Assembly: GCA_010015585.1 (NCBI GenBank)
Contig: ML975154.1
Strand: one strand, 5' to 3'
DNA length: 64,000 bases
From: Eremomyces bilateralis CBS 781.70
Lineage: Eukaryota
The notes under the pieces were generated by a model, which worked only from the letters and a program-made list of their open reading frames with translations, ran no database searches and was not told the origin of the DNA. Below are positions 7,599 to 31,642 of this stretch, one piece after another. How positions within the stretch are numbered: position 1 is the stretch's first letter; each line of letters opens with the position of its first letter. A program made the translations under genes and the position numbers.

Positions 7599-9337
7599 GG
7601 TGGGTGGGTTGTTGTGAGGGTGGGAGTAGATGAGAGGACGAGTGGTAGAGAAATGGGTGGGGTGGAGTTTAGAGTTTAGACCTTCATTTGAGGTAGAGAA
7701 CGTTGGTTTGAGTCTTGAGGGGGTTGGAGTCAAGCGATTTCTAGGTTTCTGGGGGTTTAAGAGGTATTGGTGTAATTATGGGAAGCTGAATGGATGTGAA
7801 TAAGTATTTCCGGATTGTCCATCTGAACTGAACTGAAGAAGTTGGGAACTTTGATGCCAAGAGATATTGTGGCTGACTGTGGCTGATCCCTGTCCTTCCC
7901 GTCCCCCAGCCTCCGTTGATGATTGATCACTGTGGGATCGAAGTTCATACCCAGTCATTCACTCATGTGGCTCAACAGTCATGAGTCAACACAGATCATG
8001 GGAAAGCAAGTATATTATGATAGACATTACATCTAGGTGCTGTGTATATTCGAGTATTTGAACCCATCCTACTCTGCCATTGGAAATATATACAAGCGGT
8101 TGCCAAATACCTACTCATCACGCTCTCCATGACTACCCATCCTAGGCACCCTCGGGGAAGTCCAATTCCCGAACAAGACGATAATCCCAACTCCCAAGCG
8201 TTATCCCATTCCATTTTACGATTTCGATCTCCCTCTCCAGGGAGAAGATAGATTCATACCTGCCAATCATCCCTTCTCCTCCAAGAAAGAATACAGGCGA
8301 CAAAGCCTCGGAACTGATAATTTCCGTTCCGTTCATCAAGTATTAGTGGCAGTATGGTCAGTTTCTGCTATGAGACGCCCTCCTGTACGCGGGATGACTG
8401 GCATTGTTCGAAAAGGCTGGCACCAAGCGGAGACACCTACCAGATTGAAAGCGCGCCATCGCGAGGAATTTAATCCTTCGCAATGGTTTAGAGCCTTAAT
8501 TCGAGGATTGAACTGCATATTAACGGAGTCTAGAACGACACATACCACCTCCATCAATGTGCCATTGGCGATGCAGAGTGCAAGCCGCAAGCCAATGGAT
8601 GAGATGCCCTTGTCGCCTGTCGGGAGGGCGGCACTAGGTTCCGCATGTATGGGACAGCCCGGACAACCGTCCCTGAGAATCAAAAATCTCACCTGATGAA
8701 TTGGACGGATTGGGAGTTTCTTTCAAGGGTTGACTGTCAATCGGGACTCAATCCGTTCGATATATCCCGAGCTCTTAAAGGGAGACATCCGCTATTAACT
8801 TGTCTCTTCAATCAGGTATATCCCTCCGTGACCCTCGGAATCCAGACGCGATTTTGCCATTTTCACAACTTTGTGACGTGGTAGAAGTATGTCTAAAGAG
8901 GATGGGCTCTTGCCCTCCCACATGGCCCTGACCGTGGATTAATGTCAGGATTCTTCGAAGAGCTGTTTCAGTTCCCAAACAAAAAAACATGAAGCAGGAG
9001 AGCTCTCCTTCGCTTTCATCCAGAGATTCAATTTCAGGCATCAAGGCATCAAGGCGTCATATTCGTCGGCCGGGGAACAATATGTCACATGACATTAATG
9101 TCTTCAGCTGCACCGCCACAACGCCACACATGCAGTGGAGTTCAACGGTTATTATCGCATCGCATTTTCACAAATAATCAAAGTTTCTGGTTTGCCTCGT
9201 TGCTCTCTTATCCTTTATTATTATTCTTTCCGCTTCCCTAGTCTTCTCTTCCACTTCTTCATCCTGTCTGATTATGTTCCTAGAAATGTTATGATGTGGT
9301 TGGCCTTCTCCTCCACATCCACCACTTCTCCGCCGCG

Positions 9338-10706
9338 ATGAGCCATGAATGGCTGGGAGCCGCCCGGTATCTCCTTTCCACATACCTAACTTCCTCCCCC
9401 TCAGGCGTCCTCCGTAATAAACCGTATCGTGTCCTCCTCCGACATATCCTCCGAACCCCTCAACGCCGTTTCATCCAATCCTCCGTTCCCACTCGCCCTC
9501 TCGCCGCCACCCCTCCGCTCCCCTACTCCGCCATCCTCCGCCGACGACCACACCACCCTCTCCTCCCATACCCCCTTCGCTCCCCTCAACGCCGCTTCCT
9601 CCAATCCGCCACCACCCCTGTCCGCCCTCTCACGAATCCTCCCCCCCTCTCCTTCTGCATCGCCGCCTCCTACTCCGCTAAAAACCACCCCTTCGACCCC
9701 CACCGCGACCTCTTCAAATACGACCCCTCCGTCCGCTCCAAACTCAGCACCCTGCGCCCGAGACCTGGAATTCGCCCACAGAGCGGCCAGGACTCGTTTT
9801 TCGTGAGCGATGTCGGGGAGACCGGGACGGTAGCATTCGGCGTCGTGGATGGGGTCGGAGGATGGGAGTCTTCGGGCGTCGACCCGGCGCACTTCGCGCA
9901 TGGGCTATGCGACCATATGGCGATGGGCGCGGCGAGGTATCCGGCGGAGTTTCGCGCCGGTCCGCTGAGGCCGCGGGAGTTGCTGCAGTATGGGTACGAC
10001 CAGGTGATGTCGACGGACGAGATAGTCGCGGGTGGGAGTACGGCGTGTGTCGCGTCGATTGAACCCAATGGACGGTTGAATGTAGCCAAGTAAGTCTCAA
10101 CTCCTCCTTTTTCCCAGGTAGCAGCCGACTAACCGTCTTGACAGTCTTGGCGACTCCGGCTTCATCCACCTCGGCCCCAACCACGTCCGCCACTTCTCCA
10201 AGCCCCAAACCCACGCCTTCAACACTCCCTACCAACTCTCCAAAATCCCCCCCTTCATGCAACTCCAAATGCGCCTCTTCGGCCCAGCCGAAGCCCACGC
10301 CGAAACCCCCGCTGACGCCCACCTCTCCCACCACCAACTCCACCCGGGCGACGTCCTCATCTTCGCCACCGACGGCGTCTGGGATAACCTCAGCCCTGAG
10401 GACACGCTGAAGTTGGTCGGGCGGACAATGCAGGCGAACGGGGCGTGGGTGGTCGGCGAGGAGGGGGTGACGATTGGAAACCTGCGCGGCGGACAGGGGA
10501 CGAAAGATGGGGGAGGAGAGTGTCAGTTGTGCAGCGCGTTGGCGGTGGCAGTAACGCGGGAGGCGAAGGAGGCGAGTCTGAACGGGATGCGGGAGGGGCC
10601 GTTTGCGCGGGAGGTGCGGAGGCATTTTCCGGGGGAGCAGTGGATGGGGGGGAAGCCGGATGATATTTGTACGGTGGTGGCGGTGGTGCGGGAGATGGGG
10701 GGTTAG
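9338..10706 (+). CDS. PTC7: PP2C-family phosphatase, Ptc7/Azr1 type, likely mitochondrial
   Basis: Exons 9338-10089 and 10145-10706; intron 10090-10144 (GTAAGT...CTAAC...CAG). Motifs GQDSFF, DGVGGW, GGSTAC, ANLGDSGF, ATDGVWDNL, GGKPDDI. Arg-rich, acid-poor N-terminus. Confidence 0.9.
9456..9660 (+). repeat. Imperfect 126-nt (42-aa) tandem duplication in the PTC7 N-terminal region
   Basis: cccctcaacgccgtttcatccaatcc at 9456 vs cccctcaacgccgcttcctccaatcc at 9582 (PQRRFIQS...RPL vs PQRRFLQS...RPL). Confidence 0.75.
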
Positions 10707-11158
10707 ATTTGGTAGAATTGCGTGACTCGCGTCATTGCGCTGGAGTTTGGGGTTGGGTTGAATTCAGCGGTTAGAGTGGATTGGCTGGGTTGGGATATCA
10801 GGGCAACCTACCCAGAGAGCGGAGTAATACTTGATACCGTAGGAATCGGGATATGGACGCAAGGTCCGTACACGGATTGTTGTGGCGCTCTGGTTGATTC
10901 GGGTTTTTGGGTGATCTGAGTGCTCGAACTACTTAGGGTGATAGCCGCAAGACAGCGAATTGAATCACAAGCAACAGTCCACGGCTAGGCCAATCCACAG
11001 TTGAAATGCAGCGAATATTCCGACTAACGTCAGTAATGTACAGTAGCATTATCATCCTCGAAAACAGAGGGCTAATTGCCGATTCCGCTCAAAATAGATA
11101 CTCAAGTAAACCATACGCCATCTTCATATCGAGCATCATCATCCATGGTCATCACTCT

Positions 11159-13674
11159 TCATCCCCTCCGTCGTCCACCAATCACCCCCTCCAACTCCAC
11201 CACCATACTCCTCTCCCTCCTCATCCTCTCCCTCTCCACTCCCCTCTCCCCCTCCTCCACCTCCCTCCTCTTTCTCCCCTCTTCCGCCTTCCTCATCCTC
11301 TCCTCCCGACTCATACCCACCACACTCACATACTTGCTATCCGCCGGCGTCGCTGCCATCCCCTCGAACACCTCCTCTTCCTTCCCTACCTCCTCCTTTT
11401 CTCCCAACAACATCCGCGCCTCCACCATCCCCTCCAACCGCCTTAACGCCTCCCGTGGCCCCTCCCCCTCCACATCTTCCCACTCCACCACCTCCCCGAC
11501 ACTACTCCCATCCGCGCTCCCACCACTCACGCACCGACTCGGCGCATCCGACGCGGCCGACGACGACGCGAAGTCCGACTCGACTGCTGTCACGCCAGAT
11601 AAGCTTACTCGGTACCGCGCGCGGTGGCCAGGGTCGAGGCCGGGGATCAGCCCGCGGTCGGGGACACTGCCGAGGCTCCAGCGCTGGCTAGGGTTGGTCA
11701 TGGTGCTGCGGCGCCGGAGGTTGCGGTCCATGGCGGATTGCGGGGCGGGGATGGTCGACGCGGGGGAATTGCCGGGATTCGTGGACGAAGGGGGCGAGAT
11801 GGTGGGGTTAATGGTGGTCGGCACGCCGAGGCTGACGACGCGGGTTGGGCGGCGGGGACAGCGGAGGGAGGAGGTGCTGCGGAGGGAAGAGGCGCGGCGG
11901 ATGGAGGGGGGGGAGAGGCGGTCGACGTAGTCTTTGAGGGATTGGGTGGCGGCGGTGGTGAGGGATTGGAGGTCTGCGAGGTCGGAGTGGAGGTGTTGGA
12001 AGTGGGAGAGGAGGGTGAGGGCTGTGGAAAGGGTGGGGTCGGTGGGGTGGGTGGATGTGGAGGGCGAGGTTGGGGAGAGTGATGGGATGGTGGATGGGGT
12101 AGAAAGGGTGTTGGCGTCGTCTTTGATGACGGCGATGCGGGCGAGGGCGGTACGGAGGGAGGTGGTTATGGGGTTGAGCGTGCGGAAGGGTGTGGTGGGG
12201 AGGGGTGGGATATTGGTTGGCTGGGAAGAGAGTAGGAAGTTCATGGACGCGGGTCGAAGGCGGCTGGTCGGTGTGGTGGGAATTGCACCGGGAGAAGCGG
12301 ATTCGGAAATCGGTCGTAATGGCGAAGCGACGCTGCTGGGACGCGATGGGATAGCGCCGTTGAGGGACTGAAGCGTGGAGCGCAGGTTGCTCGCGTCGTT
12401 CGTAAGGAGACTGGTGAGGGATTGAATGCATTCGGAGATGCGGCCCCAGCGCTTCGATTCCGTGGGTGAGGAACCCGAGCATGGCATCGCGAGCAGGATG
12501 CAGAGTAGAACTCGACGAAGGGTGACGTGTCGGTACCAGAGAGTTGCGAGATCGCGGACTGAAGGAACTTCCTCATCGGGTGATGAACCCGAGCCTTCAT
12601 CTTCGGAACTCCATGACTCGCGGACTTGTGAACCGAATCGCGCTTCGCTGATATCCTGCTCATGCACCTCGTAGATTTCGAGGTACTTATCCACCTCTTT
12701 CTCGTGATCCGCATACCGCTTGAAATCATCCGTCATATCGAGCAACATCGTTAGCAGTCCGCCAAGATCTTTGTTCAAGCATCTTCTCAACGACAGCAGT
12801 CGGGGTTTCTGGTCATCTCTGTCTGCAGCGATCTCCTCCACGTCATTCAATATGCCCAGCGTCTCTCTCCCAGCCTCATCAAACACCGTCATAGCCGAGA
12901 GCATCTGTTGGGCAATTTCGACCGCCCGCCTCCGAACATGTTCTAGCCATTGTTGTCGAATGTAGAGATATCCCACCGTGACGAGGGCCCACGACAACAC
13001 CATCGCGAAGCATAACCGTGCCAAACTCCAACCCTGTGCCGTATGCGCCCATTTAACCGCCGCCGCGATCACGCACGCGACGACCGGAACGGCCGCCACT
13101 TCATGCACATCCAGGCCCCTCGCCAGCACCTGGCCACTGGATAGTCTTTCCAACTGATTCTTCCCATTCGCTCCGCCTACCTCCTTCACCCATCCTGGTA
13201 TCTCCACCGGAAACGTGGAAGCCGCTCCATCCGCGGCGAGCAACGGCGACGTCGCGAGGATGTAGCGGAATTGTTCGAGGAACTTGGCGCCTTCGGCCTC
13301 GCGGATGGCGGCGCGGAGTTGGTTGAGGAGGGACATGTTGGTCGGGAGGGAGTCGGCTAGTTGGGAGAGTGAAGGGATGGAGAGGTGGAGATGTGGAGAG
13401 AGGTGGGCAAGGAGGGTTTGGAGGTGGGAGGTGACGGATGTAGGCGTCACATCTGACGAGGTGGAGGGATGTGGCGAGTTGGTGGAATAGTCTGTTTGCG
13501 AAGGGTCAGTATTTGCGATAGGAAGTGAAATTGAACCGGAGGGTGATTTTGTCAACGAAACCAACGGTGTGAGATTCACTTTGGTCTCGTGGTTGGATAT
13601 ATCACTTTTCATATTCCCAACATACCTTCAAGATAGGCAGCAAGCGGCGAGCCATGCTGCACAACTGACTCCAT
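11159..13674 (-). CDS. vezA: Vezatin/Inp2-like (myosin-binding motif of peroxisomes) membrane protein
   Basis: Short exon 1 13674-13626 (MESVVQHGSPLAAYLE), intron 13625-13492 (GTATGT...CTGAC...CAG), exon 2 13491-11159 in frame. Family motif FLEQFRYILATSPLL, two hydrophobic segments, C-terminal SREER...SMVVEL. Confidence 0.75.
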
Positions 13675-14698
13675 CACCACCGGAACTTCTTGCACTCTCC
13701 TGGCGACTCATCCACCATATACCTCGTGACGGTATTTGTTTGTGAACGTCCAAGTGCGCCCGACTGCACCACGTAGTCTCGTCTGTCCAGTTCCGAACCG
13801 ATACTGTGTCCTGATATACACTCAACAAACCACGATTTTGAAGTTCCCGAAATCTTTCAAAAGTCGGTTGTCCAGAATCAGTTTGAGATGGAATCTATGA
13901 CTGAAGGAGCGGATGTATATGGTCGAAGAATCACAGCACAAACAAGGTGAACTGCGATGGAAGACGGAGGATGCAGGTGATGATGAATTCCTGCGCCTAC
14001 GACTCGGAATAAGGGAATGAACTCGCAGGCGTCGCCGATCGTCGACCAGGATCTCGGCCTCCTTGGCTTCTGGAAGACGCAAGCGGCAAGACGGATGTTT
14101 TGGACACTTTTGCGACGCTCTGGGTTGCTGTGGCGTTTCGTAATCTTAGTTTCAAGTTTCAACGGCTCGTCCCTGAAGGCCGAGAGGCTCCGTGTTGCTT
14201 ATTCCGTTTCGAGATTCCTATCACGGTATCGTATCTATGTGTAAGGTACGCGGAAATTGGCATAGCAACAGATATGTACGGGAAAATATGGGTGAAATGT
14301 TAATATATTTTCCCCGCATGTCCGGTGCCGAGTCCATGGCTGAGTTAATATGAATCTATTTCCACGTGCGACACCCTCGACGTGCATGTGTATCACTGGA
14401 TCAACCATGCGGAGACGGGAATTAAGCGACATTGAGATACAAAAAAGATTCATTCTTCCGTGATGACAGACTAGAAATCCCGAACGAAACTCCAGGTTTC
14501 ATCATGCGGATGCAACTCCTTTATCGCATGATCGACCTCGACATCCCGAGTGCTGATGGTATCTGATGCTCTGACGCCTTGCCGAAATGCACCTAGCAAA
14601 ATCGTTTGTACTCCCTGCCAATGATACACTCGGCCCCTCAACCCGGTAGTATCATAATCAAAGAAACCCTATTCCCAACCCGAATACCTATCCCTTCC

Positions 14699-17600
14699 TC
14701 ACTTCTTATACCTGAACCCCAACCCCGGCAGCCTCGACCGCAACGCCAAACTACTTCCTACGACGCTCAAACTCGAGCACGCCATCGCCAAACTCGCCCA
14801 CACCGGATCTAACCGCACGTGCGCTCCGTTGCTCTCCACCGGATACAGCACCCCCGCCGCCACCGGCATCGCGATTAGATTGTACACACAGGCCCACCCG
14901 AAGTTGAACCACACCCGTCGGAACACCTTGCGCGACAGATCGATCAGTGTGAGGACCGACGACAGCTTCGAGTGGATCAGGATGAAGTCCGCGGAGGAGA
15001 TCGCGATGTCGCTGCCGGAGCCAATGGCGATGCCCACGTCCGCCATGGTGAGGGCGGGGGAGTCGTTGATGCCGTCACCGACCATCGCGACGGTGGCGCG
15101 GCCAGCGGGATAGGATTCCTCGGCATCTGTTGACTCATTGCTGCGTTTCCGTTGGCTCCGCTGCTTCTTCTTGTTCTTTTTCCGCGCCGGTACCGTCTTC
15201 TGGAGCCACTTAATCTTCTCGGCCTTCTGTTCCGGGAGGACACCGGCGATGACGTTCGTGGGCTTGATGCCGACCTGCGCCGCGACAGCCTGCGCGGTTG
15301 TGGGGTTGTCGCCGCTGAGCATCCAGACTTCGATTCCGCGCTTGGTTAAGGCGGACACGATGCCGGGCGCCTCGTCGCGGAGAGGGTCGGAGATGGCGAA
15401 GAGGGATGTGAGGATGTAGGTGCCGGTGCCCACGGTGGAATGGATGGATGAGCGGATGGATTGAGGCGGGTTGCGAGAGTAGCGCTCGGTTTTGGAGTTG
15501 TTGGTGGGAGGGAGGGGGAAGTTATAGGTGTCGTGAGCGTCCCAATAGGTGGATTGAGGCATGTAGCTACCCGTGCCGATGGACGGGTCGCCTTGAGGGA
15601 GGTCGGCACCAGAGGGGTAGAATGTGCCACTGCGGTTCCCTGGTAGGCTACCTAACCCAGGCTGGAGCTCGTCACCGTAGTCGCTCATCGAGTAAGTTTC
15701 CGGCCCGCGAGATTCTCGTAAGTATGAAGGCCTCGGGGGTCGCAGAGGCGCACCATGATCTGCATCCGCCTTGAAAGGGTTGTTGCTCGATCGAAACCGA
15801 CGGTTTTCTGTCGATGGCTTCTCGCTGATGGACTGCCGTTTGGCCTCCGACTTCACCCTTAATTCCTCAGGCGTGGTATAAGCTGCACGCAACGCCACCA
15901 GGACAACACTCCTGCCTTGCCTCTTCCAGCCCTGAAGAATACCATAGCTGTGCTCGTCGATGCCGACATCGTGTTCTTCAAGTAGTCTCTCATTGCCGAC
16001 CAAGACATCGACGTCAAGCAAGGCCCCTGACTTCTGCGCTCCATCTGATGCGAGGCCTCCCAGCGGAAGGGCGAATGATGCGGTCATTCCCATCCCCGGC
16101 ACCTCCTCAGCATCCCTCACTTCCAATTCATCCAGTGCGGCTTTCGCACCTGGTTTGGAATCCGAGATGTCCATCTCTTTATCTGCTTCCCCATCCGTAT
16201 CCTTACTCGGGCTCTTTATACCGAGTCGCTCCTCACAGAAGTCCATCACCGCTTTCGCCACCGGATGCCCACTCCCACTCTCAACCTGCCTCACCATCGC
16301 CAACACCTCGTCGGCGTCATCGTCGCTGGTCATTTTCCATCCCGTAACTTTTGGGTCCCCGCCCTCCGTCAGCGTCCCCGTCTTGTCGAACACCACCACG
16401 TCGAGATCGCTGGCTTCCTGGAATGCCTCGCCGCCGCCCTTGACCAGGATGCCGAACTTAGCCGCCAGCCCACCGCCCACAAACATGGCCGTCGGCGCCG
16501 CGAGTCCGATGCCGCACGGGCACGCGACGACGAAGACCGCGATGGCGAACCGCAGACTCCAGAGCGGGTAGCCGCCCTGACTGTTGTCCAGATAGGAATC
16601 CGGCAACAAGCCCGCCATGCCCGTCGCGAGCCAGACCGTCCAGGTGACGATCGCCACCAAGATTACGAATGGCACGAAATGCGACGTGATGATGTCGGCC
16701 GCGCGCTCCACCGGCGCGCGATGTGTCTGCCCTTCCCGCACCACTTTGATGATCTGATCCAACATGCTCGACCCGTCCGTTGTCGTGAGCTTCATGCTCA
16801 CCGGCCCCGTCCGGTTCACCGTACCGCTGTACACGGTGTCGCCGATCTCCTTCTGTACTGGTCGGCTTTCGCCCGTTAGGCTACTCTCGTCAAAGCGTGA
16901 CGAGCCGTCAATGATGATGCCATCGAACGGAGGCGAGCCACCGGCCTGCACGCGCACCACATCACCGACATCCAGCAGCGCAACGGGGATCTTTCGGCCG
17001 CTGACGTTGGTCGATTCGACGAGGATGGCTTCGGAGGGACGGAGGTTGCCGAGGTTGGTCACGGCGTCGCCGGTTTTCGCTTTGCTGTATGCCTCGAGAA
17101 AGCGGCCCATGAGGAGGAACATGGTGAGGAAGATGACGGAGTCGAAGTAGATACCGGAGCCGTCCATGCTGTGGGTGCCTCCGGAGGCATTGGGAAGGGT
17201 GGAGTTGGCCATGCCGCCCATACCGGGAAGAGCAGAGGCGGTCGGAAGCATGTTGTGACCGCTGTGCATTTGGGAGGAAAGGGTGTCGATAGTTGTGGCT
17301 GTTGCAGCAAAGGGACTTGGAGCAGTGTCGGTCTCAATTAAATGACCTGAATGGGAAGACATATCGTCAATCCCTAGGACCGGTGTGGGGGCAGCGGTGG
17401 GACCAGACGTTAGTGTTGAGAGTCCTATCGAGGTCCATATCATATCCATGTCCGTTGGCATCGGCGCTGGTGATTCCGCTGCTGGTGGTTGTGGGACTGG
17501 TGATTCCGCTGCTGGTTGCGGAGCTGGTGATTCCGCCGGTGGTTGCTGGGCAGGCGATTCCGCCGGTGGTTGAGCCGCTGCTGGTTCAGGTTCTGTTGCA

Positions 17601-19786
17601 TCTCCCTCTGTTGGATGCGAATGTCCAGCGGGCATATCATCCTGACGTTTGAAGACGGCTAACACAGCTCTCTTCATATCCTTCATATCGTGACCACCAT
17701 GTTTCGGCTTTTCCAGCGCGCCGATGATCAGCTCCGCGATGCTACTGAAGTAGGCGATCGACGTCCCTAAGCACATCAGCATGTTCATGCTTCCGAACCG
17801 GACGAACCGCTTCCACATCGGCGTCTTGCTTCCCGGTCGCCACATCGCTTTGACTTCTTTTATGGCTTTGCGGTGGAAGATGTCGGCTCCGAAGAAATAT
17901 ACCGGCGTCGCGAGGATGAATAGCGCCCATTCGGATCGAGAAACGGTGCCGGTCCACATCGGCGCCATCATGAATGTTCGAACGGCGTTGTCGTGATGGA
18001 GCAGACTCATACAAACGATCCCGATTATGAAGGCTGGGATGCCCGCCGTGACGCACAATGCGAGGCGTAAGAGGATGGTACGCCTCTCTCTTGCATGCAA
18101 TGCGCGACTCCTGTCTTCTAAGGTGGGAGCATGATAGGGGGTTGGTTTGAATTCCGGGTTGACGGATGCGACAAGGTCGAAGATGGTTCGGATCGTGAAG
18201 TGCGGGGCGTGTGGAGCGTATTGAACCTCGAAAATCGGATCGGCGGTGGTCGCGATCTTCTCGAGCGATATCTTGCCCTTGAACTCCTGCTCGAGCGCGT
18301 CGACTATGTGCGTGGGGCAGTGATGGCAGAACATGCCGTCGACTCGGAAGGAAACGGTTCGATATGTCTCTTCTTGCTCGGCTGCCGCTGCGTTGACCAT
18401 GTTCTCCAGCGTCGCGTCGAAGCCCGCGTCCTCGATCGCTTCGGTGATCGCCCCCACATTGTCCTTTCCTTTGAATTCGACGACGCCACTGTTCTGGATC
18501 AAGTTGATATCGACCTGGTTGACGAAGTCAAGCTGCTTAACGACAGTGCTGACATTGCCGACACATGCAGCACACGTCATGCCGCCAATCATATAGGTCG
18601 CTTTCCAAACATCGCCGCCGCCTTCGAGCACCAGCGTCCTCCGCTTTTTCGCTCCACCGATCTCTTCCAGCCCCTCGATGGTTGCGTCGAATCCTGCATC
18701 TTCAATGGTTGACCTGACCTGTTCAGCATGATCGTTACCCTCGAAGACCACGGTGGCGCTATGGGTGAGGAGCGAGACGTTGATGGTTCGAACGAACGGA
18801 AGCTCCTCCACAGCATTCGTAATGGCTCCGACACATGCAGAGCAGGTCATACCAACGATGCTGATGTCGGCCTTGAACGTCCCTGCTGCTGAGGTCGGGT
18901 CAACGATAACTGAAATCTCCTTTTTGGCCAAGGCCTTGGCCCTCGCCTCTTCCCCCGAAGGAAGGTATGTTGTATCCGTCGATGGCCGGTAATGTTGAGT
19001 ATCAAACGACGCCTGTGGCGCAAGCCCACGAGGTCGGTCATTGAAGCTGGCGACCTGCCGCAACGGCACGATATCGGTCGGTTGGTTCGACGCTTTCTCC
19101 AGCCCCCGTTCCTGCCGGCACTCAGCGCAGTTCTCGGAGTGTTTCATTTCTTTTCCCATCCTGTCCAGCTGTTCGTTTCGGCCGTAGTATGAGGTAATCG
19201 AGTACTCGTCCAAGTAACTCGACCGCGGCGAGCGAAGTCCTTTATGCTCGCGGAATGAGCGTCTCCATCGAGCTACCGCTTCGGTAAAGCTATTTTCCCA
19301 GTCGTCGCCAGTGTTGGCCGAGGAGACAACCTGGACTTCTTCCTGGCCTCGTGGGGTCCGCTGAAAGATGCTATGGATGTCGAACCCTTCGTTTTCGAGG
19401 GAGGTCGAAATGTCTTGCGTCCGAAGCAAGGAGGAGTGATGGACGATTACGGAATGAGAAATGATGGATGTGGAGACTCCAGTCGGCGCTGGTTCGAGTA
19501 ACCCGAGCGTGTCCTTGATATTCACAACACAGGAAGGACAGTGCAGGTTCGTGATATAGAGAGTAGTAGTGAGGTCCTCTGCCTTGTCGTCCACGGCCGG
19601 AGAGGGCTTTTTCAAAGGTGTGGCGGACCGGAACGGTGATGTAGGACTGCAAGAAACCGTTTCTGCAGGCATCCGTTCAGGGACAGATTGACCACGGCGA
19701 TGTTTTATCATATTGGCAGCGTCCCCGTTACTATTTGATTGCTGTGACCCCGGCTTCAAAGGCCCGGAATGCTTAGAATCTGCCAT
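14699..19786 (-). CDS. crpA: Cu(+)-transporting P1B-type ATPase, CrpA/Crp1-like, 1695 aa with two large insertions
   Basis: Single ORF. HMA motifs NLHCPSC, GMTCSAC, GMTCAAC, GMFCHHC; LTGES, ACPC, DKTGT, SGHP, SGDN, GDGINDSPAL; Cu(+)-type YN and MACSS in the last TMs. Subfamily (CrpA vs Ccc2) is inferred from the N-terminal motif layout. Confidence 0.9.
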   Translation of the reverse strand: MADSKHSGPLKPGSQQSNSNGDAANMIKHRRGQSVPERMPAETVSCSPTSPFRSATPLKKPSPAVDDKAEDLTTTLYITNLHCPSCVVNIKDTLGLLEPAPTGVSTSIISHSVIVHHSSLLRTQDISTSLENEGFDIHSIFQRTPRGQEEVQVVSSANTGDDWENSFTEAVARWRRSFREHKGLRSPRSSYLDEYSITSYYGRNEQLDRMGKEMKHSENCAECRQERGLEKASNQPTDIVPLRQVASFNDRPRGLAPQASFDTQHYRPSTDTTYLPSGEEARAKALAKKEISVIVDPTSAAGTFKADISIVGMTCSACVGAITNAVEELPFVRTINVSLLTHSATVVFEGNDHAEQVRSTIEDAGFDATIEGLEEIGGAKKRRTLVLEGGGDVWKATYMIGGMTCAACVGNVSTVVKQLDFVNQVDINLIQNSGVVEFKGKDNVGAITEAIEDAGFDATLENMVNAAAAEQEETYRTVSFRVDGMFCHHCPTHIVDALEQEFKGKISLEKIATTADPIFEVQYAPHAPHFTIRTIFDLVASVNPEFKPTPYHAPTLEDRSRALHARERRTILLRLALCVTAGIPAFIIGIVCMSLLHHDNAVRTFMMAPMWTGTVSRSEWALFILATPVYFFGADIFHRKAIKEVKAMWRPGSKTPMWKRFVRFGSMNMLMCLGTSIAYFSSIAELIIGALEKPKHGGHDMKDMKRAVLAVFKRQDDMPAGHSHPTEGDATEPEPAAAQPPAESPAQQPPAESPAPQPAAESPVPQPPAAESPAPMPTDMDMIWTSIGLSTLTSGPTAAPTPVLGIDDMSSHSGHLIETDTAPSPFAATATTIDTLSSQMHSGHNMLPTASALPGMGGMANSTLPNASGGTHSMDGSGIYFDSVIFLTMFLLMGRFLEAYSKAKTGDAVTNLGNLRPSEAILVESTNVSGRKIPVALLDVGDVVRVQAGGSPPFDGIIIDGSSRFDESSLTGESRPVQKEIGDTVYSGTVNRTGPVSMKLTTTDGSSMLDQIIKVVREGQTHRAPVERAADIITSHFVPFVILVAIVTWTVWLATGMAGLLPDSYLDNSQGGYPLWSLRFAIAVFVVACPCGIGLAAPTAMFVGGGLAAKFGILVKGGGEAFQEASDLDVVVFDKTGTLTEGGDPKVTGWKMTSDDDADEVLAMVRQVESGSGHPVAKAVMDFCEERLGIKSPSKDTDGEADKEMDISDSKPGAKAALDELEVRDAEEVPGMGMTASFALPLGGLASDGAQKSGALLDVDVLVGNERLLEEHDVGIDEHSYGILQGWKRQGRSVVLVALRAAYTTPEELRVKSEAKRQSISEKPSTENRRFRSSNNPFKADADHGAPLRPPRPSYLRESRGPETYSMSDYGDELQPGLGSLPGNRSGTFYPSGADLPQGDPSIGTGSYMPQSTYWDAHDTYNFPLPPTNNSKTERYSRNPPQSIRSSIHSTVGTGTYILTSLFAISDPLRDEAPGIVSALTKRGIEVWMLSGDNPTTAQAVAAQVGIKPTNVIAGVLPEQKAEKIKWLQKTVPARKKNKKKQRSQRKRSNESTDAEESYPAGRATVAMVGDGINDSPALTMADVGIAIGSGSDIAISSADFILIHSKLSSVLTLIDLSRKVFRRVWFNFGWACVYNLIAMPVAAGVLYPVESNGAHVRLDPVWASLAMACSSLSVVGSSLALRSRLPGLGFRYKK
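17466..17587 (-). repeat. Coding minisatellite, 27-30-nt unit x4+, encoding QP(P)AESPA repeats
   Basis: (g/a)ctggtgattccgc-like cores at 17466, 17496, 17523 and 17550. Confidence 0.9.
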
Positions 19787-22700
19787 GGCAAAATTGGGAA
19801 CCGTGGCGTGAGTTGATCAAACGGGGCGTCCCTGTCATAGATTGGCAACTAGAATGGAGATTGAGGAATGCTTCCGCGGTGACAGGGCAGTAATACAATA
19901 AAGTGCGGCTTATATGGAAGCGGAGACAGATGGTGGGAGGGATAAAGTGAGACTTAATATCGGGCTGTATGGAGAAATTGACATGCCAATGAACTTCCTC
20001 CGCGTGATTCACCGATGCGATAGAATGTTTGAGACTCCGAAAGAAACACTGTCACTGGGTTTAATACGGTCTGCGTGTATTGTGCGATGTATTTTCATTG
20101 ACAGAATCTGCCTGCATGAGTCAAAACGTAAGAAATTTGCACGCCTTTTCCCATCCGCCTCTCGCATAAATCTCGCAAACGTCATGGCGGCCTAGACGGA
20201 CAGCTTTCCACCCAACGGCAGGCGCTGGAATCTTCCATTATCAACGGCGTTGGTGCCGAGTCCGAAGCAGCAGCGGCCATGACGGGTAAATGCCAATCAG
20301 GGATAGATATTAAATCTTGTTACACAGGAGGGGGGAAGGTTGTCGAGGATAGATTCGAGTTGGAGTGACGTTGATGGAAGACGCTGCCCTTAGCAATGCT
20401 TGTCTTGGAATACGGGTTTCTGATTGGCTAGTTAAGCCCTTTCCCCAGGTTCCACCCTTGCTTGTCCCCTTGCTTGTCTCCTTGCCACCTTTCGAATAGA
20501 TGAACTCTCCCCACCTTCCTTTCAACCTCGTGGTCCTGTACTTGGCGGAATATACATAAGTATACATACATTGGGCTGGAACGAACGAGAAATTGGCTAC
20601 AATATGCGTGGACATGCTGCTGCGATTTCACACTTGCCACAATGCGCATTTCGTGGCGATGAGGCTATGGCGATGGCATCAGATCTTCTGTACATTCCAG
20701 CGGCCAAAGCAGTGTGATGCCTAGGGGAATGATTTCGTATCATTTGGTGACTGGTATAGTAACCGGAGATGAATTTCACACCATCGTGTTACCAGTGTCT
20801 TTCTTTTCAAGTCAAATTCTTCAAGTCTTGGACTGCATGGCAACATCTCAGCGGCGTTATCACCATCGTGTCATGGGGCGCTTGCCCTTATCAAACCACA
20901 ATATAGCTCTCTTTTCTTCTATCTTTGTAATATCGACCTGCATCTGATTCATACCGGGTACGCTAGAACTCGTGGCATGACAAATGCCATCCTCGTGTGA
21001 CATTTCGAACGCGTCCATCGGGCGGCTCAAAGCTTGAGTGCAATAAAGCCATGCGACCATCTGGTCTTTATCTGGGGCTATCTGGCATATCATCGTACAA
21101 TCTGACCGAGGCACTAGTCGCGATATTGTGTATGGACGAATCGGCATGAAGCTGACAATATATTTGACGAGGGCGGACCGCATCCCCGTCACCACAAGGC
21201 AATAATATCCCTGTTCGTATAAGCTCCGAAATTAACGTTAAATTTAACTATAATCTCCGAACTCACATCTTCAGTCGGACTCCAACTCTATCGTACCATA
21301 CTCTATTCCGCACCGCTTCCAATGCCACCTTCGAATCCCTGGGACGAAGGTGTTCCCCGCCCAAATTAAGCACCTCCAAGATTTCTCGGCGCATATCAAA
21401 TGCCGTGATCAATTTGAAGCTCCTCGGAAGAAGTTTGGTCGTCTCAAGCGAGCCACTGACCCCGTGGACGGTGTGTTCGGCTCCACGAATGGAAGGTGAC
21501 GCTGAAATCAATCTCATCGTATTTGCTATTACGGGAACGAGGCAATATCGGGCCGGATGTCTCGGATCCGAACCTCATTGTTACCGACATGGAACGAAGA
21601 GCAAGATGCCACTCTGTGGGCGAATGACGCAAGTTGACACGTTTTGTTCGAGTCGCCTGGTAAACTGGTGTGAAAGGAGAGGAATGCCTCGAATCAACAA
21701 GCGTATACAATGGACAATTGTTTGAACCTTAACAAAGAGGTTCTCACTTGGACGGACGGAGCGTCGAATTATGCTCTCAATGTCGAGTAGCACAGTTTTG
21801 ACAAGTACTCAAAGCGAAATTGAACCACATGCGGTGGTCGCCATGGTACTGTTCCGTCAGCATCAAAGGATACGACAGAATTTTGAGAGGTACAGATATT
21901 TCGTCATCAACTCTCATACTTCCCTTACACTGCCAGGATTGAGGAGCACTTGGCCAAAAGACACCAGTCATGGTTAGCAGCACAATACCACAAAGCACAA
22001 ACATCAGATCTGGGGACAGGTACGTCATCGGCTGGTCTCTCCAAAGTCTCCATGCCCTGTCCGAACAATACCCTGTTTGCCTTAGAGCCTTAGGGACTTG
22101 ATGCCTCAGGCATGAAAGAAAACAAGTTAGTCACGTGCCTGCGATTGGATCCTTGGGCCATGGGAGTGGACCTTCCAAGCGTCTCTTTCAACCTCAAAGT
22201 CGAAACATCAGACAAAGAGATCATTATTCCTCAATAGCCTTTTGGGGGTTTAATTTCTTTCGTTCGCAACAATGGCGGCCCTTCAGCTCTTATGCAATGC
22301 CAATGGAAACGCCCGCGCTTGGCCCTGGCGTGCTTCCCTTGGCCATTGCAGATGTAGCCAGGGGATATGCACTGTTCAAGATGGTCAAGAGATGCATCGA
22401 AGCGATACGCGGATTCGCACCGATTGAAGCGTAAGTTCCCCAGTTTTTGGACCAGTGGCGTATCATTGCTCAACACAACTTTCGCCTCAAGATACTCCAA
22501 AGTTTCGTTCTCCGGTGAACCAGGAGGAATCAGGTCAAATGTGTGGTGACTGTGGTCGATCGTTCTGTCCAGCGCGATGATGCGAAATGTCGTGCTCGCG
22601 GGAGGCCCGCCAAAACCCCTGTTCGCTTCATGCTTTGTTTTTCTCCCACCCCATTCATTCCCGTTCATTGGCCCATCTTTCAAATGTCATCAGGTACAAT

Positions 22701-23497
22701 TTATCACTATGTACTAAGATTGTACCACGGTATGACCACCTGTAACTGAGGTAAGACATATCTTGTGGCCTAGTTTAGGGTGCAGACCGTGCGGTTCCAA
22801 TTCACTGGTCCGATTCAAAGTTCGCTAGACCTGGCTCGTGGGATTTCTGTTTCTTTCTCGTGTTGGATTGCATGTCCTTTGCATGATCTTTTCTCTCTCA
22901 CTAGATCCCTCCAAGACGTCTAGGAAGTCAAGAGATTTACAAGTTTGCTTATCTTTCGCCGCTTGAATTGGCACTAAACGCTATATGCTTGTCCTTATGA
23001 CGTCTGCGACGCGTCGACCTTAACTCATTTCTATCATCGATTTGACCTCGAGATTTGCGCCATCCTCTCTCTTTCCAAACGAATCCCCTGAATCTCAGCC
23101 TTCATCAATCCCCGAACAGCTCGCTTCTCCTCGGGATTTGCCGAGTCGCAATAGCTCGCCATCAAGCCTCCTCTGCAGGATATTATATGTGGCTTGGAAT
23201 CTTACGAAATGGAATCGTAATAGCCTCACCCTGAAAAGCATATCCCCCCACTTGGAGGCTCTCACGTAACTACGCCCCACGATCTAGCCCGTCCCATCGA
23301 GCAGGTGCAATATCCTTACCCAGTCCGCCGCACGCGACTGAGGCCTGCATCGGAGACCCTTGGTTCTTAGGTCTGGTCTTGAGCATTGATCACGTCGATC
23401 CGCTATAAACCTGGCCTTCCCCGAATCATTTCAATCATTTTTATGATCTACATCTTATGCGACTCCATTGACATCTGATTTCGAAACATCGACAACG

Positions 23498-26164
23498 ATG
23501 TCTCAAGATGGAACTAAGTCCACCGATACCTGGACCAAAGTCGGCCGTGGGCTGGCGAAGGGTTTAGGAATCGAGTTGGAGGACCCTGTCCACAATGAGA
23601 GGGTGACGCGTGGTGAATCAGTCTTCTCGGTCACCAGCGCCGATACATATGTTGAAGAAGAACCAACCGTCGCCGAGTGGCTTCGACAAGTTGCTCCTAC
23701 CGGCCAAACTGTCGTCCAGTATTTCATCAACCTCTTCCCCTTCCTGAAATGGATCGGCCGGTACAATTTACAATGGCTCATTGGAGATCTTATTGCTGGT
23801 AAGGATCGCTGGGATTCTCAAAGGTTGACTTGGCTAACATGTTTTAGGCATTACTGTCGGCGCTGTCGTCGTTCCGCAAAGTATGGCATACGCAGAATTG
23901 GCCAAACTACCAGTCGAATTCGGACTCTACTCTTCTTTCATGGGAGTCTTGATCTATTGGTTCTTCGCGACCTCGAAGGACATCACCATCGGACCAGTCG
24001 CAGTCCTGTCTACCGTCACCGGCAACGTTGTCATTAAAGCTCAGGAGCAAATCCCAGATATGCCGCCATGGATCGTCACATCCGCCCTCGCAATCATTTG
24101 CGGTGGGATTGTCACCTTCCTCGGACTGGTGCGTATGGGATGGTTGGTTGAGTTCATTTCTCTCACCGCTATCACTGCGTTCATGACCGGATCCGCCATC
24201 AGTATCGCAGCAGGTCAAGTCCCTGCGATGATGGGCATCTCCGGCTTCTCCACTCGAGATGCCACCTATCAGGTGATCATCAATACGCTGAAGGGTTTGC
24301 CCCGGACGAACATCAATGCCGCCATGGGATTGAGTGCATTATTCTTGCTATATCTGATCCGCTTTACATGCGGCTACGCCGCACGCAAGCAGCCGCATCG
24401 TGCGAAGCTATACTTCTTCCTGTCGACTCTTCGAACTGCGTTCGTCATCCTCTTTTACACGATGATCAGCGCAGCGACGAATCTACACAGGAGGGATAAC
24501 CCTCGGTTCAGAATCCTCGGGAATGTGCCTAGAGGTAAGTGATGTCGGCAAACTACTAAGAAGGAAAGACGCTAATCACATTATAGGTTTCCAACACGCG
24601 AAGGTTCCCGAGCTTAATTCTACCATCATCCGCACCTTTACCAATGAAATTCCCGCCGCAGTCATCGTTTTGCTGATCGAGCACATTTCCATCTCCAAAT
24701 CCTTCGGCCGCATCAACAATTATACCATTGACCCGAGCCAGGAACTAGTCGCCATCGGCGTCACCAACCTGCTGGGTCCATTTTTAGGTGGTTACCCGGC
24801 CACTGGTTCGTTTAGTCGAACGGCAATCAAGAGCAAATCTGGCGTGCGAACTCCATTTGCCGGTGTTATTACCGCGATAATCGTCTTGTTGGCCATCTAT
24901 GCACTTCCTGCGGTCTTCTTCTACATCCCAAATGCCTCCCTTTCAGCTGTCATCATCCACGCTGTTGGCGACCTCATCACCCCACCCAATACTGTCTATC
25001 AATTCTGGCGGATATCCCCACTGGAAGTTCCGATCTTCTTCGCTGGTGTTTTCGTCACAATCTTTACCTCCATTGAGAATGGTATCTACACGACCATCGC
25101 GATTTCTGCTGCCATGTTGCTCTTCCGGATGTTCAAGGCCAAAGGTCGATTCCTCGGCAAGGTCAAGGTCCACTCCGTGATCGGAGACCATCTTCTGAAC
25201 CCGGATCAGTCGTCAGGAAAGCCTCGACTGAAGCAACTTCCCAAAGGCGATCCGGAGGAGAACACCCGAAACATTTTCTTACCGCTCGACCACAAAGACG
25301 GCAGCAATCCGACCGTTGAAGTCAGCGCGCCCTACCCAGGGATCTTCATCTATCGATTCTCTGAGGGATACAACTATCCCAACGCAAATCATTATCTCGA
25401 CTATCTCGTTGCCTCGATCTTCAAGGAGACCCGAAGGACCGACCCACATTCCTATGGCCGCCTCGGAGTACGTTGTTTCAACTCCCAACCCTTTATCCAG
25501 TCAACTAACATCATCACAGGACCGTCCATGGAACGACCCCGGCCCATCCCGCAGCGAAATGAAGCGAATCGACGCCGCCGGCGGTGTCGTCGAAGACGAG
25601 CGCCCCACCCTCAAAGCTATCATCCTCGACTTCTCCTCCGTCAACAACGTCGACGTGACCTCGGTCCAAAATCTCATCGACGTCCGCAACCAGCTCGACC
25701 GCTACGCCACCCCCGACCTCGTGGACTGGCACTTTGCCTGCATTAACAACCGCTGGACGAAGCGCGCCCTTGCCGCCGCCGGGTTCGGTCTCCCGACCTC
25801 GGCGTTCAAGGACGGCAGCGCGGGACACTGGAAGCCGATCTTCTCGGTGGCGGAGATCGGTGGATCGGATTCGGCGGCGGTGGCAGCGGATTACCGGAAC
25901 CGCGAGGACGAGGAGAACCAGCGGCGGGCGTCGGTGGTGGCGGCGCTGCCGGCGGATGCGGTGACGCGGCAGTCGAGCTCGGAGGACGACGCGGTGACGG
26001 AGGCGTTGGAGAAGACGCTGAGCTCGACGAAGGCGTATGGGACGGTGAAGACGACGGATCGGAAAGTCGCGGTGGTGCATGGGTTGAATCGGCCACTGTT
26101 CCATATGGATTTGACGAGCGCGTTGCAGGCGGCGATCGCGAATATAGAGGGGAAGACGGTGTAG
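23498..26164 (+). CDS. Sulfate permease (SulP/SLC26 family with C-terminal STAS domain)
   Basis: Exons 23498-23798, 23848-24534, 24587-25467, 25520-26164 with canonical introns. Motifs GDLIAGITVGAVVVPQSMAYA, FGLYSSF, ATSKDITIGPVAV, YPATGSFSRTA, IILDFSSVNNVD. Confidence 0.95.
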
Positions 26165-26734
26165 ATGGGGGAGATGCTTATTTTAATTTACTTTGAGATA
26201 CCTCTGGATGATACGCAGATAACGGCTGTGGATTCCGTTTCTTCACGCAGGAAATTATAATTGTCCTAGCATGCCTTTGTGCTCCGATTTCTGTAGAGTA
26301 TCACTGCATGTTCAAGTGTGTAGACAGTGATCGCTTCCATTGTTCCTGAGTTGTCCATTCCTTTGGATGGAACCTTCGAGGCTGCCTGTTCCTGTGCCCA
26401 CCGCTGCAAATCTTGTAGACCAGTAGGCGTCTCTACGCACCAAGCATTGTTATCTAATTGCTTGACTTTCATTCCTACGAATTTTTAAGCAGTACGTAAT
26501 TTCACCCCCTGGACGAATCCAACCGGCTGGTTGACTGTGCTGCTTCAATCGGCTTGGGCGAACCCTGTCCATCGCGCTAGTCCCGAATCGGAAAAACAAA
26601 AATTCATTAAAATTCAAACTTCATCTGCACCATCTCAACCAACTTTGACTACGAACACCACCTGTATCCGAACCAATATTTCTATAAATTCACAACTGTA
26701 TCAATCCCAAGGCTGTATTCAGTCTCAAGATACA

Positions 26735-27901
26735 ATGGCCGAACCCGACACCACCCTCAAACGCAAGCGCGATGAAGACTTCGAACCCATCGAAGTCGAC
26801 CTCTCCCTCCCCACCCCCTCCTCCAAAAAGGCCGCCCGCAAAGGCAAGAAGTCCGCCCCCACCACATCCTCCACAACCCTCGAAACTACCGACCCCTCCG
26901 CCCCTGAACCTAAGAACCCCAACCACACCCGCTCCCCCTACGGCATCTGGATCGGCAACCTCCCCTGGACCACCACCAAGCCGCTCCTCCGCGCTTTCTT
27001 TAACGACAACGGCGTCCTCGACGCGGTCATCACCCGCGTGCACCTCCCACCCCCCAAGAAAGCCGACCTACCGCACCCGAACTCCGTGCGGCCGCCGCCG
27101 CAGAACAAGGGGTTCGCGTACGTCGATTTCTCGTCGCAGGAGGCCCTCGACGCCGCGCTGGCGCTGTCGGAGAAGGAGCTGGACGGGCGGAACGTGCTGA
27201 TTAAGAATGCGACGAACTTCGAGGGGCGGCCGGCGGTGGTGAAAACGGAGAATGGGGCCGAGGGGGGGGCGCAGAGTGCTGCGGATCCAGGGAAGAAGCC
27301 GAATAAGCGGGTGTTTGTCGGGAATCTGTCGTTTGATGTGACGAGGGAGGATCTGTTGGAGCATTTTGGGCAGTGTGGGGAGGTGGCGATGGTACATGTC
27401 GCGACGTTCGAGGACTCAGGGAAGTGTAAGGGGTATGCGTGGGTGACGTTCGAGGAGCTGGAGGGCGCGGAGGCGGCGGTGAAGGGGTGGGTGCTGGTGC
27501 CCGAGGAGGGCGAAGAGTCTGAGGAGGAAGAAGAGGACGAAGAAAAGGAGGGAGAGGCGAAGGTCAAGGTGGCGAAGAAGATGCGCCGGAAGAATATCAA
27601 ACGGATCGCCGGCCGGCCGATGCGGTGCGAGTTCGCGGAGGACGCGGAGACGCGGTATAAGAAGCGGTATGGCGGACCGAAAGGGGAGCGGAAGCCGTTC
27701 GCGGCCAATGGTGGTGGTGCCCGTGAGGCGGGCTCAGGCGAGCAGGAGGGCGGCGATGTGGCGCGAGCGGAGAACTCGTATGCCGGGAAGCCTCACGAGA
27801 AGAAGAATCGGAAGTCCAGAGCTCCGCATGTCGCGGAGGCGCCGATGAGGGCGTCCGTGGCAATTGTGGAGGGGGCGGGGAGGAAGACGACGTTTGATTG
27901 A
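26735..27901 (+). CDS. NOP13: Nucleolar two-RRM RNA-binding protein, Nop13-like
   Basis: ATG 26735. IEVDLSLPTPSSKKAARK; RRM1 IWIGNL...NKGFAYVDF; VLIKNATNFEGRP; RRM2 VFVGNLSFD...ATFEDSGKCKGYAWVTF; ends GRKTTFD. Confidence 0.85.
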   Translation: MAEPDTTLKRKRDEDFEPIEVDLSLPTPSSKKAARKGKKSAPTTSSTTLETTDPSAPEPKNPNHTRSPYGIWIGNLPWTTTKPLLRAFFNDNGVLDAVITRVHLPPPKKADLPHPNSVRPPPQNKGFAYVDFSSQEALDAALALSEKELDGRNVLIKNATNFEGRPAVVKTENGAEGGAQSAADPGKKPNKRVFVGNLSFDVTREDLLEHFGQCGEVAMVHVATFEDSGKCKGYAWVTFEELEGAEAAVKGWVLVPEEGEESEEEEEDEEKEGEAKVKVAKKMRRKNIKRIAGRPMRCEFAEDAETRYKKRYGGPKGERKPFAANGGGAREAGSGEQEGGDVARAENSYAGKPHEKKNRKSRAPHVAEAPMRASVAIVEGAGRKTTFD

Positions 27902-30604: not shown

Positions 30605-31642
30605 ATCCGTTTAGGATGCATCGGTGTTGATATGTGTCGAAGTCGAGAGAACCCGCGAGGTGGAATATATCCCGATATGTCACCTCGACAGATGAATAGA
30701 TCGGATGGCTAGGGGGTTGAGCAAAGGTATTGCACCCAGTGCAGGCAGCAGAAAGACGATTCTCGGCGATATCAGATCAGCTGGGAGAAGAGAGAGGGGT
30801 AGAATTATTACAATCTTTAAGTGGAAGCAACAAAATATGGAATAGGAAGACACCGCATTGAGGAATTTTCCAGGAGCAATGCGGATTTGGCTGGGATTCT
30901 TATTGATACTCAGCCAGTATCATGATGGAAGTCAAGTGTCCTTTAAGAGGGAGTCCATTAACCTGCCGGACCAGCAAGAAGGGGCGCCACAATAGACGCC
31001 ACAATGGACTCAAATAGATTGGGCTGACTCAGCACTCAACTCGTGTACCGGTGTACGGTACTACGGTGGTCGGTCAGTGACGGTCACTCACTTCGGTGTA
31101 TCGGTGTATGATCATATGATGTGTCATGTTTATGTGGCTATGTGGCGGTGCAAGTGGGCAATGTGGCTTGATCAATGCCAAGTTCTAGCCGTCCAAACAG
31201 TCCAATCATATCCTAGATCTCTCCACCCCCTGTCCTCCTTCCCGCCATCTCATCGTGCATTTTGGAGTTTATGGGGCATTTCCTGGCATTTCCTGGCCAT
31301 CCATCACTTCATCACTGCGCTACCTGGCGCATCTCCATTTACCAGCCACTCAATAATGAATTTTACGATGTTATGATCTTTGCTATACCTGGCTTCCCCT
31401 TCCGATGTCTTTCTGTCCCGATTTTTCGTCTTCGCAATGAGTTGAGCGTCACTGTCGCAACCCGTCTACCAACGACTTGAATCTCACCCTTTGAAGACAC
31501 TGATATTGTGAACGGCATCTTTGCATGTCCCCCGCTTATTGATTCCTTGAAAATATCTGACCCTGCTATTCATAGTAATTGAAGTAGTTTATTCCCTTGG
31601 TTTAATTGATACCCGAAAGCTGCACATATCCATCTACTCGTT

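Follow-up and report, generated by a model that had tools for sequence, protein, structure and literature searches.

A long His/Met-rich, predicted-disordered loop on the copper exit side of a CrpA/Crp1-type P1B-ATPase of Eremomyces bilateralis

A copper pump gene on the minus strand of a 64,000-nucleotide (nt) stretch of DNA from the fungus Eremomyces bilateralis CBS 781.70 (contig ML975154.1 of assembly GCA_010015585.1; the window) carries a long in-frame insert where the connection between two membrane helices is normally short. The insert, 186 amino acids (aa) in length (186-187), runs from K692 to G877 in the in-frame translation (17153..17710, minus strand) and forms the extracytoplasmic loop between transmembrane helices 3 and 4 (TM3-TM4, also named M1-M2), being flanked by the end of TM3, ...AYFSSIAELIIGALE, and by the start of TM4, (I)YFDSVIFLTMF. 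The insert is real coding sequence, and there is, in our judgment, about an even chance that it arose when a Cu-acceptor loop on the exit side of a CrpA/Crp1-type pump was expanded, in this lineage, into a disordered chain. Residues are numbered throughout by the full translation (P0001), with the initiator Met not counted. An initial annotation, made from the DNA letters alone, had described the start of the insert, its PAESPA repeats, its His/Met clusters and its NST and NAS sequons, and all of these are found in place on the minus strand.

The gene is a complete, intron-less coding sequence at 14699..19786 (minus strand; 1695 codons and a stop, with the first ATG at 19786), which lies in a single stop-free frame of 1705 codons covering 14699-19816 of the window. 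Pfam domains recognized in the open reading frame (ORF) are HMA (2.3e-32), E1-E2_ATPase (1.5e-45) and Hydrolase (HAD; 4.7e-21), and the translation contains all of the core motifs of a P-type ATPase: LTGES of the A domain, FDKTGTLT of the phosphorylation site and GDGINDSP of the hinge. The helix signatures of the P1B-1 class are CPC in the fourth core helix, N-x6-YN-x4-P in M5 and M-xx-SS in M6, and they appear here as VACPCGIG, NFGWACVYNLIAMP and MACSS. The nearest solved structures are ATP7B (3.3e-121), HMA4 and CopA. At the N-terminus two CxxC motifs (NLHCPSC and CAEC) are followed by three HMA domains (GMTCSAC, GMTCAAC and GMFCHHC). Two N-terminal CxxC motifs and three GMxCxxC HMA domains are described, in the available text of PMC5447758, as the typical layout of Aspergillus nidulans CrpA and Candida albicans Crp1, which the pump resembles in this arrangement as well as in its eight-helix core with CPC, DKTGT, TGES and GDGINDSP. 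It also has a conserved, Arg- and aromatic-rich intracellular MB-M1 loop, in which W104, R105, R115, F116, R118 and F119 (alignment A1) are invariant and the segment WRPGS...RF.RFGSMN is nearly invariant in 31 sequences; this loop, compared by description only, may be the counterpart of the A. fumigatus CrpA loop (residues 542-556) that joins helices 2 and 3 on the inside of the cell and is reported in the accessible part of PMC9966986 as conserved and specific to fungi. By these sequence features the pump is otherwise an ordinary Cu-ATPase of the CrpA/Crp1 type. It differs from its CrpA/Crp1 relatives in being about 400 residues longer, through four lineage-specific inserts of which one is the 187-aa TM3-TM4 loop.

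That the insert is not an intron, at least in the dominant transcript, was found by mapping one public sequencing run (X1, for which the RNA type is a guessed label) on window positions 8000-27000. The run was treated as spliced RNA, not DNA, because its contigs show seven GT..AG joints (CT..AC on the minus strand), skipping 55, 134, 56, 61, 49, 52 and 52 nt, and because depth changes in steps between genes (about 600-2600, 69 and 11-18). One RNA contig (record 4, 6407 nt, depth 69) spans 13626-20004 and thereby the whole ORF including the loop, with no gaps and no other letters, and none of the splice joints of the X1 contigs falls within the ORF. An unspliced contig of depth 69 is not explicable as unspliced background, since a neighbouring gene of depth 14 is spliced; the same contig also bridges a 134-nt intron into the next gene and is therefore no proof of a single molecule. 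The initial annotation had pointed to RNA as the means of excluding an intron, and the contig reads straight through the insert.

Removal of part of the loop by splicing in at least some transcripts is nevertheless what the public gene model implies. This 1115-aa model (P0002) takes out as an in-frame "intron" a stretch of 495 nt with the ends GTTAGC...CACAG (17169..17663, minus strand), so that the alignment of P0001 with P0002 skips residues 708-872 and a loop of 22 residues, an ancestral length, would be left; the stretch is bounded by GT..AG and its length is a multiple of 3, and RNA contigs drop rare isoforms, which would be invisible in them. Such conditional splicing is considered very improbable in view of the gapless RNA contig and the lack of a joint in the ORF. 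The putative intron is also unlike the seven confirmed ones, which measure 49-134 nt at a guanine-plus-cytosine (GC) content of 0.34-0.51, in its length, its GTTAGC donor and the GC content of its region (0.56-0.58, about 0.57). The loop frame is free of stops, whereas each of the other five frames contains 2-9, and just 0.19% of 20000 mononucleotide shuffles of the loop are stop-free. Moreover the model is unreliable in other parts: it begins at an internal Met (residue 25) and drops four in-frame blocks (~64-288, 708-872, 1213-1253 and 1310-1430), through all of which the RNA contig is continuous, and two of the three blocks outside the loop hold conserved family sequence, residues 73-288 (HMA1, CAEC) and 1213-1253 (EVPGMGM) aligning to the homologue P0003. 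From the alignments, the public 1115-aa model would be in error even if the RNA were set aside, and the predicted true product has ~1695 aa.

A loose end occurs in the RNA at 17719, where the loop begins. There a second contig (depth ~15, from bin difference) fits the gene upstream and then continues for 255 letters that lie off the window, and the 30-letter consensus of this end was not found anywhere in the window. A canonical splice donor at 17719 was considered and rejected, the adjacent minus-strand bases being CT, not GT; the divergent contig may be chimeric or come from another locus.

The placement of the insert between helices comes from alignment to solved structures. TM3, residues ~666-690 (17714..17788, minus strand), has its Kyte-Doolittle peak at 677-681 and corresponds to predicted helix 122-146 of the structural model described below (block pLDDT, the model's predicted local confidence, 78-85). 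Query residues 662-694 align to ATP7B 725-757 and those from 878 onward to ATP7B 762 onward, while residue 184 of the Legionella pneumophila enzyme LpCopA (3rfu) aligns to query 876; the insert thus replaces the ~4-residue M1-M2 connection of ATP7B (TM3-TM4 of eight helices). Because the topology of P1B-ATPases is fixed, as seen in the solved ATP7B and LpCopA structures, the insert is assigned to the non-cytosolic side. TM4 starts with YFDSVIFLTMFLLMGRFLEAYS (17084..17149, minus strand), and D881 of its YFD sequence (17141-17143) corresponds to E189 of LpCopA and D782 of ATP7A, if the first residues of 3rfu match without a gap. LpCopA E189 and the equivalent D782 of ATP7A are part of the copper exit site according to the portion of PMC5428812 available. 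The claim of the initial annotation that the loop faces the lumen or the exterior at the Cu exit side is borne out by these alignments taken together with that report. In A. nidulans CrpA arrives at the plasma membrane (PMC5447758, available text); by analogy the loop would point toward the cell wall at that membrane and toward the lumen during transit through the secretory pathway.

An AlphaFold2 model of residues 545-1120, computed with 30 homologues, has a mean pLDDT of 61.8. Block means are ~75-90 for most of the membrane helices and below 50 for residues 717-873, and the sole confident element of the loop is a helix at 700-715 (MKDMKRAVLAVFKRQD) directly past TM3 (block pLDDT 58 and 74). 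The loop is accordingly modelled as disordered and is predicted to add no membrane span. An extra span in IWTSIGLSTLTSGPTAAPTPVLGI was entertained and rejected: the 19-residue Kyte-Doolittle average (KD19) rises no higher than 0.70 in the loop, as compared to 1.68-2.42 in the main peaks of the helices on either side. If the added spans were odd in number, the remainder of the pump would moreover be turned the other way round, which counts against it.

In composition the loop falls into a short basic segment and a long Lys/Arg-free chain. It opens with KPKHGGHDMKDMKR-AVLAVFKR-QDDMPAGHSH, and the membrane-proximal segment KPKHGGHDMKDMKRAVLAVFKRQD, residues 692-715 (17639..17710, minus strand), holds all seven of its Lys and Arg residues, which lie within the first 21 residues, none being found in the remaining 165. 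The latter form an acidic stretch with 16 of the 20 Asp and Glu residues of the loop, as counted from the sequence. Ser, Thr, Pro and Ala together make up 48.9% of the loop, and four tandem units of 27 nt (17462..17572, minus strand; period 27, 4.0 copies and 79% matches in Tandem Repeats Finder) code for 9-aa repeats of the (Q/P)QPPAESPA type. Two N-glycosylation sequons, N860-S-T and N865-A-S (17183..17206, minus strand), lie toward its end. An extracytoplasmic segment that is rich in Ser, Thr and Pro, bears repeats and is predicted to be disordered has the sequence character of a mucin-like stalk, the glycosylation itself being a prediction.

Seven His/Met clusters, with HxxH, HxH, MxxM and MxM patterns, are spaced along the loop by Pro/Ala/Ser/Thr-rich stretches. 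They are, all on the minus strand, HGGHDMKDM (residues 695-703; 17675..17701), MPAGHSH (717-723; 17615..17635), MPTDMDM (775-781; 17441..17461), MSSHSGH (808-814; 17342..17362), MHSGHNM (839-845; 17249..17269), MGGM (855-858; 17210..17221) and the HSM of THSM (871-873; 17165..17173), the last being 8 residues ahead of the exit-site Asp. His and Met account for 21 of the 186 loop residues (11.3%) as compared to 4.6% of the other 1508 residues of the protein (binomial p = 1.4e-4), and for just 0-3.7% of four cytosolic inserts or linkers in the same protein. All 21 lie within 4 residues of another His or Met, where shuffles give a mean of 12.6 and none of 20000 reaches 21. The HSGH of the fourth cluster is coded CAT TCA GGT CAT and that of the fifth CAC AGC GGT CAC; the use of different Ser codon families (TCA and AGC) speaks against either being a recent copy of the other. 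The non-random clustering of His and Met fits metal binding, if sequence is a guide.

The loop was compared with that of related pumps. The top database match is P0002 itself, a "heavy metal translocatin" of the same strain that is 98-100% identical over four large aligned blocks, and P0056, named at its source "copper resistance-associated P-type ATPase", is 69% identical over the query region. Among the best 120 matches every named one comes from the Dothideomycetes, the class to which Eremomyces bilateralis belongs (order Eremomycetales), and even the longest of the 119 other homologues among them (969-1296 aa) falls short of the ORF by ~400 residues. The TM3-TM4 loop has a median length of 9 residues in 102 measured homologues (range 8-51), in agreement with the initial annotation, which had called it normally short (~4 residues in ATP7B). 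It is exactly 9 residues long in 74 of the 102, and fewer than 3 His plus Met are present in 81; the 21 loops with at least 3 are concentrated among the best matches. The anchors used to delimit the loop failed for 17 of 119 homologues, of which eight stayed unmeasured; nine loops that failed the second anchor are ~10-37 residues long and mostly His/Met-rich by manual count. P0011, P0038 and P0042 have short TM3-TM4 loops. All of these lengths come from predicted proteins and may be underestimates, given that for E. bilateralis the public model had concealed the insert.

The closest relatives have a Met/His-rich loop of 14-51 residues at the same position, among them P0003 (Met-rich, QPRMPMEDGEDQMPPGS), P0004 (His/Met-rich, EKNAHSAMPEGHSSMNDDSH) and P0026, whose 51 residues with 8 His and 6 Met make it the longest measured. 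The loops of these Dothideomycete orthologues (P0026, P0025, P0004 and P0003) are like that of E. bilateralis in position, in Met/His enrichment and in their flanks (AEL...xxx...YFDSVIFLTMF), but they lack PAESPA repeats, Ser/Thr/Pro spacers, the basic helix and sequons, and no alignment of them to the inserted 165 residues was obtained. A short Met/His-rich M1-M2 loop is thus a trait of the clade, which E. bilateralis has expanded about ten-fold. The possibility raised by the initial annotation that similar loops are common among CrpA orthologues holds for short Met/His-rich versions in the closest relatives and fails for loops of this size and architecture. The novelty thus lies in these latter features and not in the principle.

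The principle is known from the human copper ATPases, at another loop. In ATP7B, as given in the available text of PMC6139820, a Met/His lumenal loop that joins helix 1 to helix 2 binds Cu(I) and is required for transport; if 3 Met and 2 His are changed to Ala, transport in yeast is abolished, the mutated residues spanning 668-686, and the ATP7A loop is ~18 residues longer. The fungal loop is like that of ATP7A/B in being extracytoplasmic, Met/His-rich, flexible and beside the copper exit. It is unlike it in lying between helices 3 and 4 and not at the TM1-TM2 location, in its far greater length of 187 residues and in having no sequence similarity. Hence the initial annotation, in comparing the clusters as Cu-binding elements with those of the ATP7A lumenal loop, was right as to the membrane side and the clusters, which are strongly non-random, and mistaken as to the loop. 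The fungal pump also has its own short motif at the ATP7A/B position, HH...FMMAPMW in the TM1-TM2 (MA-MB) extracytoplasmic loop (residues 596-610; 17954..17998, minus strand). This motif is a second Met-rich exit-side element, similar to that of P0003 (MYMMHPIW) and of the alignment consensus, with MYMMHPMW-like versions in relatives.

Ectodomains of the Ctr1 family carry extracellular, disordered and glycosylated "Mets motifs", in which MxxM, MxM and His clusters handle Cu at the transporter mouth. They resemble the way in which the E. bilateralis loop may work; however, Ctr1 is a family of importers with an unrelated fold, and no sequence relation was found. In the available text of the CrpA papers PMC5447758 and PMC9966986, the latter of which is concerned with the N-terminus and with the helix 2-3 loop inside the cell, no discussion of the TM3-TM4 loop was found, and the literature covered, which did not extend to supplements, gave no account in which that loop is metal-rich or carries so large an insert. 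The papers listed for E. bilateralis deal, to judge by their titles, with taxonomy or genomics.

An acceptor role is proposed because the closest relatives already have a Met/His-rich loop of 14-51 residues in this place. The ancestral short loop would have served as a low-affinity acceptor, taking Cu(I) from the exit site (D881 and the MA-MB Met motif) and passing it outward, a role for the clusters that is suggested by analogy with the helix 1-2 lumenal loop of ATP7B and with which the short Met-rich loops of relatives are consistent. In the E. bilateralis lineage this loop would then have been stretched into a tethered multi-site chain, probably O-mannosylated and N-glycosylated on its Ser/Thr/Pro spacers and sequons, that would bind Cu(I) or Cu(II), once released, close to the mouth of the pump and so favor release or block re-entry.

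A neutral origin is the other explanation to be reckoned with, and it carries a sizeable probability, somewhat short of an even chance. By this account the loop is a translated, functionless low-complexity expansion, produced by slippage and drift in a loop of unconstrained length, with its His and Met inherited from or biased by the ancestral loop. It agrees with the 27-nt, four-fold tandem repeat, with the orphan status of the sequence in all loop searches, with the variation from 8 to 51 residues that relatives' loops already show, and with the occurrence of the insert in a single species of a family in which most measured loops have only 9 residues. The GC content at third codon positions (GC3) points the same way, being 0.48 in the loop, close to the intron GC of 0.34-0.51, as compared to 0.82 in the conserved core and 0.69 in the whole gene. 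Three more lineage-specific inserts are found in cytosolic parts of the protein. Against neutrality stand the confinement of the His/Met enrichment to this one insert, the complete clustering that no shuffle reproduced, the 165 residues past residue 712 without Lys or Arg, and the differently coded HSGH motifs that speak against recent duplication.

Several of the same observations weigh against the expanded-acceptor interpretation as such. The short and metal-poor loops of most of the family indicate that a long or metal-rich loop is not needed for family function; occurrence in one species gives no evidence of conservation; the loop GC3 near that of regional non-coding DNA suggests a segment of recent origin or one that is weakly constrained or weakly codon-adapted; the three further disordered inserts imply that the gene tolerates insertions in general; and a minor loop-spliced variant would go unseen in RNA contigs. 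The correction of the gene model is clear, while the interpretation of the loop rests on one species.

The GC3 of the other insert and linker segments measured is 0.64-0.65 in three of four and 0.48 in the fourth (27 residues). The second large lineage-specific insert of the pump (15419-15862, minus strand; ~residues 1308-1455) is in the cytosolic nucleotide-binding region and is rich in Ser, Pro, Gly and Tyr with ~3% His plus Met, and smaller ones are found around residues 1191-1219 and 1531-1553 (KKNKKKQRSQRKRS...). To judge from these segments, the gene is one that accumulates disordered inserts in general.

A derivation of the insert from a captured fragment of a secreted protein, as had been suggested, found no support in searches with the loop alone. 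There was no match at E <= 10 among the proteins of 931-2965 aa (4182 word-sharing candidates) in a collection of 5.8 billion, and none at E <= 0.001 in a set of 1.84 billion representatives without a length limit; 166 pattern matches in metagenome contigs yielded none that was confirmed by tblastn; an atlas feature search gave no usable match; and against its own window (blastn and tblastn with filters off) the loop gave just short or low-complexity matches of less than 40 bits. The 27-nt array of four units shows that local tandem duplication built up some of the loop, if not more.

The initial annotation had further proposed that the pump is cleaved by Kex2, that is, cut in the Golgi after K704-R705 and/or K711-R712 so as to split M1 from M2 and leave a free-ended, glycosylated and Cu-binding stalk on the C-terminal fragment. 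Two KR dipeptides (17669-17674 and 17648-17653, minus strand) do stand 7 residues apart at the start of the loop, and with the topology assigned by alignment they are lumen-exposed dibasic sites, the basic feature of a kexin substrate. The genome also has a gene for a kexin-like proprotein convertase, an ORF of 829 codons at 28121-30610 (minus strand; Peptidase_S8 8.6e-45, P_proprotein 1.8e-27). However, KR is not enriched in the loop (2 in 186 residues versus 6 in 1508 elsewhere, with ~0.74 expected and P(>= 2) ~0.17), and both sites fall within the predicted helix 700-715 that adjoins TM3 near the membrane, a location that would make them poorly accessible. Nor are they conserved: only one of 24 homologue loops compared has a KR (P0021, KKR), and no homologue has the segment that bears these sites. 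No literature joining Kex2 cleavage to a loop of a copper P-type ATPase was found. The distance of about 10 kb that had been remarked on is correct, the kexin-like ORF lying on the strand of the loop at a distance of ~10.4 kb, but a sulfate permease gene, a gene for an RRM protein and another spliced gene, all unrelated, lie between, and such proximity is no functional link in a eukaryote. Kex2 processing of the pump is thus regarded as highly unlikely, and we think that the loop stays uncleaved.

A more specific version of the acceptor proposal is advanced tentatively and is, taken as a whole, rather doubtful. It holds that a plasma-membrane exporter has evolved de novo, in one fungal lineage, a tethered, acidic, glycosylated and Lys/Arg-free copper-catching stalk of ~165 residues, whose seven His/Met sites at the M2 Asp exit would hand Cu(I) to the wall or medium or hold Cu(II), thereby speeding release or preventing re-uptake. 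If true, no larger exit-side metal-acceptor loop would have been seen in a P1B-ATPase, and the pump would be a natural case for testing whether such loops take part in the transport cycle. The exit of Cu(I) from P1B-ATPases and its far-side acceptors are far less understood than cytosolic delivery, and the short TM1-TM2 loop of ATP7A/B is the one acceptor loop for which a study was found. In the E. bilateralis pump the other loop of the exit side would be an extreme form supplied by nature, whose seven His/Met sites, separable along a single disordered chain, would ease the testing of acceptor function. For annotation the lesson is that homology-guided fungal gene models may systematically hide long lineage-specific loops, so that loop lengths in databases may be underestimates.

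In the neighbourhood of the gene, the 3' end of the ATPase RNA contig is linked by the 134-nt GT..AG intron (13492-13625, minus strand) to a downstream ORF with a Vezatin domain (11159-13627). From this joint it follows that the contig spans two genes or that their transcripts overlap. The intron is far longer than the other six seen, which measure 49-61 nt.

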